The position numbers and the translations under genes were made by a program. DNA of 64,000 nt from the IMG/VR virus record IMGVR_UViG_3300026183_000930, positions 1 to 64,000 of that record; one strand, 5' to 3'. The notes beneath the pieces were generated by a model. The model saw only the letters and a program-made list of their open reading frames with translations, ran no database searches and was not told the DNA's origin. Below are positions 4,284-51,277 of the stretch, piece by piece (positions within the stretch are counted from its first letter, which is position 1; each line of letters opens with the position of its first letter). This DNA is from a virus.

Positions 4284-5176
4284 TATTAGAAGTTTTTTTA
4301 AAAAGGCGGGGGTTTTAAACAAAATAGTATGTGCAACGATTTTTACGGTGTCAGAATCCACATCAAAGGATGTACGGTTATGCCTGTTCGCACAGCTCAC
4401 AGGTACTGTTTCCACTGTGTGTAACAGTGCTGTAAAGTTCACACCCAAGCACCCATGCTAAAGACCTGTTTAAACAGCTTTACAGCGTCTTACAGTGGGG
4501 TCTTTGACTGTGTAAGCATAAATGTGTGTCAAAGCACAAACCCTGGCTAAAAACAGTGAAAATCTGGTACCCAAAGCACACACCAAAGCACACAATTGGA
4601 ACACAATTAGTCATTGGCCTTAGCATGATCACATAGTGCATATAATAGCAATTGGCTAACCCTATAACCCTTGTTAAACTAGTACCATAGTGGATCACTG
4701 TTCGCTTTGCTCACCTCTGTTGACAGCCCGGCGAGTTCTGTTAAAAACACACCAAAGCAGTGTCAAGCATTATCAAGCATTGACCACAGTGTGTGCGAGT
4801 GCATAACCCTGATCACACAGTTGACAGCTGTGTCTGAGGGTGCTAGACCACATTCCGCATACAAAATCTATACATAACCGCAAGTTGCAAATACACCGCC
4901 GCCTATATGTACACCACATTTTTTTACTGCGTAATTTTTCAAAAACTCCAGAACATCAACCCCATCAAGTTTTAAAACCACTGTGTGTCCACATCATGCT
5001 CTAAACCAAGTTGCGTTTCCGCAACTCGTAGTAAATGCTTCGCATTAGCAGTTGCCCTTTCTTACCTCGCCCTCCGCCTATGTTATAGCCCATTTTTTTT
5101 GCTGTGCAACTAGCGCCAGGATCCAGGTTTCCAAGCCCCGGCTAGATCACATGGTCGGTGGGGTGATTTGAAAAAA

Positions 5177-5884
5177 TTATTTCATGAAGGTGTGGTTGCC
5201 CAACACACCTATGTACTGTTTACTATCTGCCCAGTGTGGATACACTAGATTGTGTGCATAGTAGAATACTGCACCATGGGTGTTATCACTGATCGTTAAC
5301 CCTGTACTGCCTGCTATCATTATGGCAAGTTCAACTGACTCCCGCCAAGCTCTGGCATTGCCTGTTATGGTTTCGCCTGTTGATTCGTAGTTGGCCCATA
5401 TCACATCCCGGTTACCATCACAGTACCATGAGAACTTGCATCTGTGCTTGACAGGATAGTACACTCTGTCTGCATCAGCTAGGTCTTTGTGTTGCTTGGT
5501 TTTCCATGATTCTCTCACAGGACCCTGTTGTACCACAGCACAATATGTACTGGGCCATCTTGAATCTAACACTCTATTACGAGTAACATTGCCCACTGCG
5601 GCTTTGCCCGAATATGATTCTGCCCTTGCTTCAAAGTATATGTTCTCTGCTAGACACACAACCTCATTGTGTTGGCTTTTGGCTACATCATTTGCATCCA
5701 ATTCTGTCCACAATATGTGCTGGGCCTGTGTGGTTAATTCTGCTACAGGTTCTGCCGATCGAGCTATACCTGTCAAAGTGGCACCTGTGATGACAGCTGT
5801 GACTATGATCACACACAGGGTTCTATACCAGATCCATGCTGTGTGGTACCAAGCAGTTGTTTGTCTTTGTGTATCGTTTTGCAT
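5177..5884 (-). CDS. cell wall hydrolase, SleB/Hydrolase_2 family, N-terminal TM anchor
   Basis: CLAENIYFEARAE, AVGNVTRNRV, CKFSWYCDG, GAVFYYA, LGNHTFM. Confidence 0.9.
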   Translation of the reverse strand: MQNDTQRQTTAWYHTAWIWYRTLCVIIVTAVITGATLTGIARSAEPVAELTTQAQHILWTELDANDVAKSQHNEVVCLAENIYFEARAESYSGKAAVGNVTRNRVLDSRWPSTYCAVVQQGPVRESWKTKQHKDLADADRVYYPVKHRCKFSWYCDGNRDVIWANYESTGETITGNARAWRESVELAIMIAGSTGLTISDNTHGAVFYYAHNLVYPHWADSKQYIGVLGNHTFMK

Positions 5885-22807: not shown

Positions 22808-23077
22808 ATGAGGGATATAATTGCAAACATAATGAAACCAAAAAAGTGGAAAAAAATAAAAGCCAAAGCACCAAAAGTGCCCGGCAACACTTGTCCACAA
22901 ATAGATGAGGTGTTGTTGACTTTGGAAAAAATTCAAACAGGACAAAAAAGATTCACACAGTTTCAACATGATCAGTTGATGAAGAAAATGGAAAAACTGC
23001 GTACAGCCAATGAGTCATTACGTAACAGCGGTATCTATTGGTACGAAGTTTGCAAAGACAATCTTAAACCTGAATAA
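22808..23077 (+). CDS. late hypothetical protein
   Basis: TATAAATA-N5-ATG; TCPQID..MEKLRTANESLR. Confidence 0.7.
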   Translation: MRDIIANIMKPKKWKKIKAKAPKVPGNTCPQIDEVLLTLEKIQTGQKRFTQFQHDQLMKKMEKLRTANESLRNSGIYWYEVCKDNLKPE

Positions 23078-42751: not shown

Positions 42752-42828
<77 letters not shown>

Positions 42829-43951: not shown

Positions 43952-43978
43952 ATCACCCTCCCCGGTTAAAGTTTAGGT

Positions 43979-44025
43979 GCGTTCCTTCGCTTTATGCTAC
44001 TTCCGACCCTAATGGGTTGAACGTA
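43979..44025 (-). ncRNA. glutamine riboswitch (glnA RNA motif)
   Basis: CGUUC-A-ACCC AUUA GGGU-CGGAAGUA-GC AUAAA GC-GAAG-GAACGC: three-way junction with AGUA/GAA E-loop. Confidence 0.85.
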
Positions 44026-48285: not shown

Positions 48286-49036
48286 TCTTTATCTTATCAA
48301 GTGTATACTTCAATGAGTAATCTTGTTCTACTTTACCAAAGTGTGATAAGTCTCTAGCCAAATCTTTTTTATAGTCTGCTTGATAATTTAATCTTCCAGT
48401 TGGTATCACAATTAAATTTATACTGTTTTGTTTACACTGTTGTTTAATAAATTCAAGCATAGAATATCGGTACCACTTGCTATTACTATCATCTATTATA
48501 TCAATTAATGGTCTTGATTCATTGATTTTGCAACTCATTAGCTCTTCTTGTTCAAATTGGCAAGTTGAAACCACAGTCTCTTGATCCCACCAATTGAATC
48601 TTTCCATAGGTGGTTCTTTTAATACAACAGTTTTTGGTTTCAATATTGGTATCCAATAGCACAATCTTTGAGCCACGTGTTGCCAATCTGCGCCACCGCA
48701 GGCAATGTTATGATAAGGAACGTTTAATTGTTCTGCCACACGCGATGCCCATAATACATCTAGAGAAAGCCCAACTCCTACAGTTTGACTGCAACCTGTA
48801 AACAGCATTTCACAAGGTATATCAAAACTGTCACATCTGTACCCATGCTCATTGAAACTGTAAGTTATTTCTTTATCAAGCCACCCATTCATTTCAAGCA
48901 GTTTTTTAGTTTTTTTATCTGCAATATGTTTGTTAAAAGATTTTTCACTATCCATATCCAGCCAGAAATGAGTAGAATTTCCACAACGTTCGTAATGAGA
49001 TCTTCCCCAAATTTTTAATATTTTTTTTTGCTTCAT
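48269..49036 (-). CDS. SGNH-hydrolase-like protein
   Basis: GCSQTVGVG, NIACGG, ARDLSHFG. Confidence 0.6.
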   Translation of the reverse strand: MKQKKILKIWGRSHYERCGNSTHFWLDMDSEKSFNKHIADKKTKKLLEMNGWLDKEITYSFNEHGYRCDSFDIPCEMLFTGCSQTVGVGLSLDVLWASRVAEQLNVPYHNIACGGADWQHVAQRLCYWIPILKPKTVVLKEPPMERFNWWDQETVVSTCQFEQEELMSCKINESRPLIDIIDDSNSKWYRYSMLEFIKQQCKQNSINLIVIPTGRLNYQADYKKDLARDLSHFGKVEQDYSLKYTLDKIKNEEYV

Positions 49037-49120
49037 TGGTGTCCTTTTTTTATTAACTTTTTAAAGCATATCATTATCTATTTATCTGCCATATTAAATA
49101 CACAAAAGGTACTTACTTAG

Positions 49121-49582
49121 ATGTCAAACTCTTATTGTTTTAAATTAATTCCTAATAAAAATGTAATGGGTCATACCTATACCTGTTTAGAAGATGATAT
49201 TAATTTAAAAGCATGGCAAAATATCAGCAGTGCCACATTCTTTGATATTAAAATTGTTCCTAGGTTTGATATAGATGTTTATAAACCTATCTTAACAAAA
49301 ATTAAAGAAATTATCAAAACAAAAGATTGTGTTGTTCATTTTTCAAATGAGTTCACAGATAGATGGACAACTAAACACGAAAAGTTTTTTTGGGAGCTTT
49401 TAAAAAGACTTGAAGGAGAAAAATTTTCTCTGGAACTTCAAGTAAGGCCGTTGTTAGCAGGACATTATGATAATTTAATTGAAAAGATAAAAAACTACGC
49501 TTCTAGCAATAACATCTTGTTTTGTGAATTTTCTATATCAAGAACAAATTTTGTTGAACACACCCTTTACAAAAATTATTGA
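49121..49582 (+). CDS. hypothetical protein
   Basis: ORF track; TAAATA upstream. Confidence 0.55.
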   Translation: MSNSYCFKLIPNKNVMGHTYTCLEDDINLKAWQNISSATFFDIKIVPRFDIDVYKPILTKIKEIIKTKDCVVHFSNEFTDRWTTKHEKFFWELLKRLEGEKFSLELQVRPLLAGHYDNLIEKIKNYASSNNILFCEFSISRTNFVEHTLYKNY

Positions 49583-49632
49583 ATACAGGTAGGTTGTCGT
49601 AAAAAGAAATAACAAAATTTACTAATTTTGAA

Positions 49633-49722
49633 TTATCTTTTCTTTTTGTTTCTTCTTCTGGCTCGTCTTTTTTTAGAGCCTCTTTTTCGTCTACCACGAT
49701 GTGTTTTATCTTGTCTTGCCAT
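49633..49722 (-). CDS. 29-aa protamine-like peptide MARQDKTHRGRRKRGSKKRRARRRNKKKR
   Basis: TATAAATA 8 nt upstream of ATG; not in ORF track. Confidence 0.7.
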   Translation of the reverse strand: MARQDKTHRGRRKRGSKKRRARRRNKKKR

Positions 49723-49746
49723 AGTGAGCGTATTTATAACTCAGTC

Positions 49747-49790
49747 AAAAAAAAGCCCCGGACTAGTGTAACCAAATGTTACTGCCGGGG
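49747..49790 (-). terminator. intrinsic terminator ending the repeat RNA
   Basis: CCCCGG...CCGGGG-C-U8 on minus strand. Confidence 0.75.
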
Positions 49791-50124
49791 TAAACAAAAA
49801 TACTTTTTTGTCTGTTATCATATTCGAGCTTGTTGGCAGAATTTTATAAGCCTTTTTAAGAACATTCGTTCCGCTAACTGCCAGCTCGAACAATATGAGC
49901 ATTTTTAAACTACTGGAGTCGCTCAAAGCAAAGACATTTTTAAGCCACTATAGCCGTCTTTAAATAAAGGCACTCTTTATATCCTAAACGGAAGCCTTTT
50001 AAATGTAAGCCTTTTTACTTGCTACTGCATCGCTTACTAAAACGAAAGCCTATTTAAACTACTAGAGTCGCTTTCAATACTTGCTAAAGCATTTTTAAAC
50101 CTAAGTCGCTTTGTGTTGCAAGTG
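49747..50124 (-). ncRNA. candidate ~380-nt ncRNA with six covarying bulged-hairpin units
   Basis: unit: stem-C-G-stem-loop-stem-UUAAA(A/U)A(U/G)-G-stem, six times; TAATTA promoter candidate at 50125-50130; terminator. Confidence 0.75.
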
Positions 50125-50272
50125 TAATTAGTTATGACCTAAGATTGTTCTATATGTATCCAGTTAATATTTTTTTTATTAACACATCATATATCTGTTA
50201 TACTGCTTTTTTATTTTGCCACTTGGCCAATTAAGTAATTGTGCAATGAATGTTTGAACAGGAGATACTACT

Positions 50273-50587
50273 ATGGACAGGAACAAAATAGAACAGTTAG
50301 AAGAAAGACTTGATGAACTTGAAACAAAACTTGACGACATCATGTCTGTGCTGGAAATGGATAATGAGCATGATGATTACGAGTACGAAAATGATGAGCA
50401 TGACAATGAAGATGAAATTTGTGAAGATTGTTATGAGGCTCCATGTGCTTGTTACAACCATGATGATGAAGACAACGATTTTGAAGATGATGAAGATGAG
50501 GACGAAGAATACGTAGACGAAAACGATTGGGATTCATCTAATGATGATGAAGACGAAGATGAATATGACGACGAAAATGACAAATAA
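50273..50587 (+). CDS. extremely acidic protein with N-terminal coiled coil and CEDCYEAPCAC
   Basis: AGGAG SD; about half D/E. Confidence 0.75.
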   Translation: MDRNKIEQLEERLDELETKLDDIMSVLEMDNEHDDYEYENDEHDNEDEICEDCYEAPCACYNHDDEDNDFEDDEDEDEEYVDENDWDSSNDDEDEDEYDDENDK

Positions 50588-50722
50588 ATCACTTATTACT
50601 AGGTCAGCATAGTTTCTATGCTGACTATAGTAAAACATTATAAAAATTAATAATATTAATTAACTGTTGACACCCTTGTAAATTTAATATACTATGTAAC
50701 AAATACAAGGTAAATATGAATT

Positions 50723-51277
50723 ATGTTGTGGTATAAAAAATTCAAAATAAGTATGCCTCAGGATTTGAAAAACGTTTGTAAAACTTACATAACTCAATTT
50801 GATCATGAACCTTTTTGGACATACAAATCAGTGGCTGATTCTAAATTATGGACAGTGCCACCACTAGGACCAAACAGAGTCAGAATGTACGATATTGTTC
50901 CAAATGAAACATTAGAACAATTTGAAAAAATGAGAAAACTAGTGACTGACATTTCTATGCTAGATGTTGAAGATAAGTTACCAGTCACTACCTTATGGGA
51001 ATATGACGAAAAGTTTACTCATTGCCCAGTACACATTGACCACGGAGGAGAACACACAGGATCATTAATAAACTCTATATCAGGCAATTTTAAACTGCAT
51101 TTGCATTCCAAAGACAAACAAGATGCACCTATTATAGATACAGTTGATGTAGATGAGTCAACTCTACTTGCATTAAATAACACTGAATTTCCACATTCAG
51201 TTGAAGGACAAGGATTACTGTTGGTGTTTGGCACAGATAAAAAAATAAATCCACAGGAGTATTTTGCAGATGTATGA
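50723..51277 (+). CDS. cupin/2OG-Fe(II) oxygenase-like protein
   Basis: HID...PHSV. Confidence 0.5.
   Translation: MLWYKKFKISMPQDLKNVCKTYITQFDHEPFWTYKSVADSKLWTVPPLGPNRVRMYDIVPNETLEQFEKMRKLVTDISMLDVEDKLPVTTLWEYDEKFTHCPVHIDHGGEHTGSLINSISGNFKLHLHSKDKQDAPIIDTVDVDESTLLALNNTEFPHSVEGQGLLLVFGTDKKINPQEYFADV

Follow-up and report, generated by a model that had tools for sequence, protein, structure and literature searches.

What kind of element is formed by a run of similar hairpins lying between two genes of an uncultured phage, and what could it be for? The window analysed here, a stretch of 64,000 nucleotides (64 kb) from an IMG/VR record of 124 kb, carries such a run on its minus strand (locus about 50139-49747), between a plus-strand gene starting at 50273 and a small minus-strand ORF. 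The source record is phage DNA, as the first-pass annotation of the window had supposed: genes for head, baseplate, and tail fibre are present, and the encoded ATPase shares 52% identity with its counterpart in the jumbo phage PA5oct. By comparison of capsid and ATPase, PA5oct and Phosso are the nearest cultured phages. The same annotation read the locus as a phage RNA presenting six copies of one protein-binding site. We find that the RNA belongs to a real and previously uncatalogued family in uncultured marine and estuarine jumbo phages related to PA5oct. To our knowledge, very few phage non-coding RNAs have an assigned role, and abundant ones of jumbo phages, such as those of PA5oct, are unexplained.

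Hairpin units and layout of the RNA

The sequence is as the first-pass annotation quoted it and contains six hairpins of one design plus a degenerate seventh between units 3 and 4 (minus strand, 50123-49747; Table 1). Each unit has an outer helix of 3-6 pairs that closes with C-G at the bulge side, an inner helix of 3-5 pairs that begins with G.U, and a variable apical loop of 3-5 nt, and a one-sided 7-nt bulge, UAAAWAK, lies between the two helices on the 3' strand only. The unit had earlier been drawn with a bulged G and an 8-nt stretch. The constancy of this core was borne out, but the G need not be bulged: a G.U pair between it and the U that opens the 8-nt stretch is possible and leaves the 7-nt bulge, although the near-invariance of both bases makes this pairing an inference. 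All six units lie on one strand within 270 nt, with a period of 35-49 nt and irregular spacing, and the direct-repeat families within the array are 65-88% alike.

Table 1. Features of the A-bulge RNA locus and RNA-library contigs covering it (positions in the window)
Feature	Position	Strand	Detail	Basis
Conserved 5' box	50129..50139	-	GGTSATAAYTA; promoter-like	kept in all lineages
5' domain	50079..50123	-	6-bp stem around unit 1, 50123-50118 with 50084-50079	folding
Unit 1	50086..50112	-	bulge 50097-50091	R1 27.9 bits; alignments
Unit 2	50044..50075	-	bulge 50056-50050, UAAAUAG variant	R1 44 bits
Unit 3 (redrawn)	50005..50037	-	bulge 50017-50011	R1 34.2 bits; alignments
Central hairpin (degenerate unit)	49966..49999	-		near-invariant in window-like loci, L135, L142, L150, L141
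Unit 4	49930..49961	-	bulge 49942-49936	R1 39.1 bits
Unit 5	49896..49925	-	bulge 49907-49901	R1 37.2 bits
3' domain	49823..49890	-	13-bp interrupted stem around unit 6, 49890-49878 with 49839-49835 and 49830-49823	fold z-score -3.8; RNAalifold
Unit 6	49849..49875	-	bulge 49858-49852; inside 3' domain	
A/U hairpin ahead of terminator	49792..49813	-		folding; RNAalifold
Intrinsic terminator	49747..49790	-	G+C stem 49790-49756, then U8 49754-49747	folding; RNAalifold
X15 contig	49822-50109			RNA library
X17 contigs	49804-49999 and 49970-50110			RNA library
X19 contig	49793-50109			RNA library
X18 contig	49947-50145			RNA library

Unit 3 had to be redrawn. It had been placed at 50035-49992, whereas MAFFT and the covariance model both give the position in Table 1, and the 3' arm claimed for it belongs to the central hairpin and is not kept as a motif in relatives. 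Two inner pairs of unit 3 are broken in the window and intact in L135, L142, L150, and L141. The central hairpin combines a 6-bp outer stem and a 3-bp inner stem with a 10-nt 3' bulge of different sequence; the unit model gives no match to it, and its outer stem is recovered when the span of the fold is limited.

This unit model, a covariance model built from the six window units (R1), scores them at 27.9-44 bits; since it was trained on these very units, the values are to some extent circular. No such circularity affects the lack of any other R1 match above 14 bits in the 64-kb window, and no further match is listed at E ≤ 1 in the 124-kb record. The best match outside the array (4460-4492, minus strand, 14 bits) combines an outer stem with a UUAAACAG stretch and is probably due to chance because the inner hairpin is missing. 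Both stems were said to vary while remaining paired, and this is what the six units display: 92.5% of 53 pair cells hold standard pairs, compared with 76.8 ± 2.9 in shuffles, and the figure for pairs changed on both sides is 7 of 10, compared with 2.0 ± 1.1 and reached by 0 of 500 shuffles. When the 3' partner is slid by 1-3 columns, the covariation score falls to ≤0.23.

The longer stems proposed around the first and last units were likewise found by folding. L135, L150, and L141 retain the stem of the 5' domain, with one U-A pair turned into U.G, and in the 2-unit lineage a small 5' hairpin takes its place. The RNA does end at a U8 terminator, as had been read from the letters, and this terminator was missed by a simple scan because its loop is long. 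With the 3' end at 49747 and a 5' end probably near 50123, the RNA would be about 375 nt long in the window.

Folding energies say less about the units. Single units have z-scores of -1.5 to +0.4 and are thermodynamically marginal, and the modular structure reaches -81.1 kcal/mol as against -94.4 for the global minimum, which is a different fold; with pairs confined to a span of 70 nt, 77 of the 104 modular pairs return. Taken by itself, nearest-neighbour folding does not lead uniquely to the modular fold, and it is weaker evidence than covariation.

Relatives, covariation and modularity

The unit covariance model and the search for relatives, suggested at first pass as a check, gave homologs in 16 of 28 metagenome contigs, in G001, and in L383, with the core kept and the stems covarying. 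G001, an IMG/VR record of 242 kb, came from a two-half-site motif pattern and carries two units, after which the A/U hairpin and the terminator of the window RNA recur; the pattern occurs in at least 114 viral stretches, and G001 was the only real case among the 80 loci scanned. A three-half-site pattern (101 viral stretches and at least 120 genome stretches) yielded no hairpin unit in the 74 + 80 loci scanned, the best score being 21.7 bits, and a stricter two-unit pattern (1 viral and 4 genome stretches) yielded L383 as the only real case. L383, a 7.4-kb contig binned in a Dehalococcoidales MAG, has an array of the L141 type together with phoH, a cytidylyltransferase, and an Asp/Asn hydroxylase domain. 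Most probably it derives from a phage and was misplaced in a bacterial bin, and it is therefore no evidence for a host.

The pattern used for metagenomes was drawn from a stretch common to the window and G001, and every metagenome locus is selected for one exact terminal-type unit. The 12 loci other than the 16 homologs were rejected as chance matches; the ten inspected look unrelated and hold no arrays, and two chance-match DNA strings checked encode a 'KKAYK' stretch. The count of six stands for the window but is not a fixed valency, as relatives carry one to seven units: six in four window-like loci and in L135, seven in L142 and L150, five to six in L141, three in L143 and L144, two in five loci like G001, and one in L145. 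The homologous RNAs have in common the 5' box, the stem around the last unit, the A/U hairpin, and the U8 terminator.

Beyond these loci, the motif was absent from PA5oct and Phosso, the two cultured relatives scanned (R1 ≤15.7 bits in the whole PA5oct genome), and blastn against cultured phage records gave no credible homolog. A search with the ATPase gave one contig, in which the RNA is absent, and the 104-aa and 255-aa neighbour proteins had no relatives among viral contigs. That the RNA fits no described family agrees with Rfam 15: over the whole window only a tRNA and a glutamine riboswitch were matched, both elsewhere than the RNA locus, and in the RNA region at E ≤ 10 four chance-level matches scored 16-19 bits against cut-offs of 56-88. 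The two known RNAs are tRNA-Arg(TCT) at 42752-42828 (minus strand), the sole tRNA gene in the window, and a glutamine riboswitch aptamer at 43976-44025 (minus strand; 55.6 bits). Such an RNA is not described in the literature that we found; the supplement of one survey lists more than 10,000 viral RNA candidates and might include one (PMC10690425).

For the family, 59 R1 matches from 14 sources were reduced to 31 distinct units, an alignment that keeps one probably spurious row (L148 6816-6861) and one truncated row. Standard pairs fill 91.6% of 297 pair cells, compared with 72.4 ± 1.6 in shuffles, and 62 cells are changed on both sides, compared with 18.8 ± 3.3 and reached by 0 of 500 shuffles; these cell counts overstate the number of independent events because the alignment is fitted to a model from the window's own units and the units are related by duplication. 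For covariation, the score is 0.534, compared with 0.207 in shuffles and ≤0.137 in controls with slid partners. Bulge positions 1-4 are U, A, A, and A in 31 of 31 units each, followed by A29/U2 at position 5, A in 31/31 at position 6, and G17/U14 at position 7; the G after the bulge is kept in 31/31, the outer C-G pair in 30/31, and the G.U pair in 27/29, where 7 of the 31 rows are terminal units whose bulge and flanking bases were fixed by the search pattern, the other 24 are unconstrained, and units with a deviant bulge would score low in R1 and escape detection. The apical loops differ in sequence and length between units, and the stems vary too. Thus, the unit repeat shows real covariation around an invariant core.

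Single units tell the same story on a smaller scale: the inner stem of unit 4 is replaced in L135 and L142, its U.G becomes U-A in L146, and strain differences among window-like contigs fall in loops or linkers or change U.G to U-A. In an RNAalifold comparison of 11 sequences, five pairs of the stem enclosing the last unit have compensatory changes, this stem being rebuilt from different sequence between lineages; the terminator stem has two compensatory pairs, and all eight predicted pairs of the A/U hairpin are kept, with one G.U/G-C change. The G.U pairs would be A.C mismatches on the opposite strand, which favours a minus-strand RNA. The transcript is assigned to this strand because of these pairs and because the U8 terminator reads only there.

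The units behave as modules. One inner hairpin recurs in three different outer stems, and one outer stem carries two different inner hairpins. In L143 (about 5229-5275, plus strand), one unit is nested inside another, so that the 3' side presents two UAAAAAU bulges in succession. Shuffling and nesting of modules therefore leave copy number, order, and nesting free, but not the helix-bulge-helix core. This freedom bears on the idea that the bulges are tertiary modules docking their A-rich strand into helices, which would make the RNA a compact part of a phage machine, like the packaging pRNA. The conserved enclosing stems and central hairpin do suggest an overall shape, and the units are too weak alone by nearest-neighbour energies, but one to seven copies in shuffled and nested modules are unlike a fixed three-dimensional architecture, and we regard such a structural part as improbable.

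An independent gene and its presence in RNA libraries

The proposal of a non-coding RNA gains from the way in which the locus is delimited. The homologs place one to seven units between the same 5' box and terminator while the neighbours differ, and the downstream gene can lie on the opposite strand. What follows the terminator is a 29-aa basic ORF with its own TATAAATA box, other small or unrelated ORFs, or opposite-strand genes. Since the downstream genes vary or have the opposite orientation, the RNA is an independent gene rather than a cis-leader.

These surroundings also weigh on the possibility that the units are tandem small-molecule aptamers resembling riboswitches. In aptamers, too, an unpaired core is conserved while the helices around it vary. 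However, we see no expression platform or regulated downstream gene; the terminator is strong and the neighbours differ, up to seven copies are present, a one-sided bulge of 7 nt is very small as a pocket, and the RNA matches no Rfam riboswitch. We therefore consider aptamers highly improbable.

The sequence upstream of the 5' box differs between lineages, and in every lineage 5 nt separate the end of the box from the A at which the 5' stem begins. Its last 8 nt match the geometry of a T4-type late box, so that the box appears promoter-like by sequence, and transcription may start at 50123. The TAATTA late promoter proposed at first pass did not hold up: it overlaps this locus-specific 11-nt box, GGTSATAAYTA, which occurs once in the 124-kb genome. 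A general late promoter was rejected, the box being unique in the genome and TAATTACA not being enriched. PA5oct promoters are reported as TATAATA plus TTGAC (PMC7318152), and no conserved TTGAC-like element was seen at the 5' side of the RNA in the lineages compared.

Exact TATAAATA boxes elsewhere stand just ahead of start codons, including that of the 29-aa ORF. The source genome (G000) has eight of them, and four of the eight have an ATG 5-8 nt downstream (for example 113444, 106054, and 37487 on the minus strand). With T4-like spacing, late mRNAs from such boxes would be leaderless or nearly so.

No ORF is conserved across lineages over the RNA; ORFs overlapping it are common only to close variants, and the frame is shifted by indels between the window and L135 whose length is not divisible by three. 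A coding region was rejected on this ground. A mimic of translation starts was also discarded, as TTAAAWATG opens an ORF of at least 60 aa at 2 of 15 sites outside the RNA, equal to the 17% background of all ATGs. A dispersed repeat, a CRISPR-like array, and promoter-stem-loop cassettes were rejected as well; the motif occurs at one locus, and there are no spacers. Helix covariation, a 5' box and terminator of its own, and the lack of a conserved ORF, by which a gene for a structured non-coding RNA can be recognised, are all found here.

The RNA is present in RNA libraries. Six RNA-labelled runs from six studies contain 44-56% of the sampled words, and in the four metatranscriptome runs, from four studies, whose contigs were aligned to the locus, complete contigs of 141-317 nt lie on 49793-50145 (Table 1) with the flanking genes uncovered; as assembled contigs, these give no strand, ends, or level, and DNA carry-over is possible. 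The rest of 49000-51000 yields only short low-complexity RNA pieces with loose ends, and the uncovered flanks and terminator are not counted as evidence of absence. In each of three studies, one contig terminates at 50109/50110 with no loose end, which hints weakly at an end nearby. The X18 contig extends 22 nt beyond 50123, which speaks against a start there.

The same evidence makes a DNA-level element highly unlikely, whether this be a set of origin iterons, a packaging or recombination site, or dispersed palindromic repeats. The A-bulge repeats do cluster in an intergenic region with divergent genes on either side, as such an element might. On the other hand, the stems covary rather than keep their sequence, the invariant G.U pairs are specific to one strand, the array leads into a terminator, the region is covered by contigs from RNA libraries, and the motif is found nowhere else in the record.

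Several features of the neighbourhood may be recorded here. The gene at 50273-50587 (plus strand), divergent from the RNA, is a very acidic 104-aa ORF that is also a neighbour in L141 and L150, and its Asp/Glu-rich repeat draws unrelated RNA contigs at 50483-50580. Directly behind the terminator (49633-49722, minus strand) lies the 29-aa ORF, which consists almost entirely of Arg and Lys, resembles an arginine-rich RNA- or DNA-binding peptide, and has its exact TATAAATA box at 49731-49738, 8 nt ahead of the ATG. It occurs only in window-like contigs, and in L143/L144 an unrelated basic ORF of 74 aa stands in its place. This peptide was dropped as a partner of the RNA, being absent beside the RNA in other lineages. 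The gene psbA is absent from the source record and from its relative G001.

Proposed role and comparison with known multi-site RNAs

We give an even chance to the reading of the locus as a gene in its own right whose product, a stable, structured non-coding RNA, acts as a multivalent ligand for a protein, whether as a sponge, a decoy, or a scaffold. The recognised feature would be the bulge in a fixed helical frame, because stems and apical loop can vary freely. Each module would display the UAAAWAK strand between the outer C-G and inner G.U helices, and two to seven copies of a single site would be presented to an RNA-binding protein or ribonuclease of host or phage. The RNA may titrate this partner (sponge or decoy) or gather several copies of it on one RNA (scaffold), and its valency could have been adjusted over evolutionary time as modules were duplicated, lost, and shuffled. 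A site of seven bases would suit a single small RNA-binding domain.

Bacterial RNAs with repeated sites offer precedents for such a multivalent ligand. CsrB, RsmY, and RsmZ carry many hairpins per RNA with the same short motif in each, in a copy number that depends on the species, and their motif is GGA in the apical loop. In the A-bulge RNA, by contrast, the apical loops are unconserved and the motif is a 3'-side bulge without GGA; the GGA loop consensus is absent from the units, a single AGGA occurring in the central hairpin. A closer parallel in size is found in CrcZ and CrcY, decoys of about 400 nt for Hfq in Pseudomonas, and the source phage is related to a Pseudomonas jumbo phage. CrcZ (407 nt) has six A-rich sites for Hfq and sets a precedent for a multi-site decoy (PMC4063720), while the window RNA has about 375 nt, six to seven A-rich sites, and a long U-tail terminator. 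It is possible that Hfq is a partner, as the long U-tail and A-rich sites are compatible with it. However, the CrcZ sites are of the form (A-R-N)n with n >= 4 (PMC4063720), whereas each bulge of the window RNA has 7 nt and at most two A-R-N triplets. The window RNA also differs from CrcZ in being phage-encoded and in having its sites framed by an invariant C-G and G.U inside a hairpin; it has neither several (A-R-N)n sites with n >= 4 nor any sequence or Rfam similarity to CrcZ.

RNases of the ToxN/AbiQ type prefer to cleave A-rich sites. The units might accordingly be imagined as a mimic of an antitoxin or a processed array, serving as substrates or inhibitors of such an endoribonuclease and as a decoy against abortive infection; an exposed A-rich strand would suit these enzymes. 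The analogy with ToxI raised at first pass has some basis, in that ToxI and pseudo-ToxI also consist of a repeated RNA unit (about 36 nt) followed by a terminator, and the phage copy expands to defeat the host RNase (PMC3475682, PMC5086642). Here the unit period is 35-49 nt and an intrinsic terminator follows, and copy number differs between strains, much as pseudo-ToxI in phage PhiTE grows from 1.5 repeats to 4.5-5.5 (PMC3475682). Type III antitoxins, however, are described as near-identical tandem repeats that yield pseudoknots on processing and precede a toxin gene (PMC5086642). In the A-bulge RNA, the stems differ between units, the likeness of 65-88% is not near-identity, and the spacing is irregular. 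No pseudoknot is evident, with folding tools that do not predict pseudoknots. Judged from their size, orientation, and conservation, the ORFs behind the terminator do not look like ToxN/AbiQ/CptN genes, and no ToxI-like Rfam match was obtained even at E ≤ 10. The analogy thus fails in its testable features, and we regard an antitoxin mimic as unlikely.

The partner could also be an RNA. In a sponge of this kind, the A-rich bulges would pair with U-rich loops or tails, such as a tRNA anticodon loop, an sRNA seed, or a U-tail, and sequester or protect them. An exposed 7-nt strand of fixed sequence has the size of a kissing interaction. The anticodon loop of tRNA-Lys(UUU) is a U-rich loop of 7 nt, and the bulge is nearly the complement of such a loop. 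The match is imperfect, however, as the bulge has five A where four are needed. In addition, positions 5 and 7 vary (W and K) without a known compensating target, the invariant flanking C-G and G.U are hard to explain through base pairing alone, and the only tRNA gene in the window is Arg(TCT). Pairing with another RNA is thus rather unlikely in our estimation, and we return to a protein as the preferred ligand.

Non-coding RNAs are also found in the closest cultured relative. PA5oct ncRNA001 and ncRNA002, of 236 and 451 nt, account for 1.2-5.1% of phage reads and are reported with unexplained function (PMC7318152). They differ from the present RNA in having no A-bulge units by eye. More specifically, the A-bulge RNA might represent a new class of highly expressed RNA decoy by which marine jumbo phages neutralise a host RNA-binding protein or defence ribonuclease, a proposal that we hold tentatively and rate as possible at best. 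If true, it would mean an RNA-based host take-over or counter-defence whose recognition motif is unlike that of any described sponge. The family lends itself to testing: its exposed motif is small and invariant within a frame that covaries, its natural variants have one to seven copies, and there are signs of expression in environmental RNA. Should the partner be a host regulator or defence RNase, phages of oceans and estuaries would possess a take-over or anti-defence device made of RNA only, and its identification would also supply a new RNA-protein recognition module.

As to candidate partners in the phages themselves, no gene for an RNA-binding protein is linked to the RNA in all lineages, and a RegA search gave no match in the source record or in G001, a result of little weight because it gave none in any control genome either. 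The cold-shock-domain protein of the 2-unit lineage is a candidate partner; no cold-shock-domain gene was found in the 124-kb record of the source phage. In the G001-like lineage, and there only, its gene is located some 500 nt upstream of the 2-unit RNA (L122 751-999, plus strand, with equivalents in L134, L136, L138, and L148). In the same lineage, a Cys-rich ORF of 47 aa and a basic ORF of 101 aa adjoin this gene, and the basic 101-aa protein has a homolog at 22847-23068 in the window, far from the RNA.
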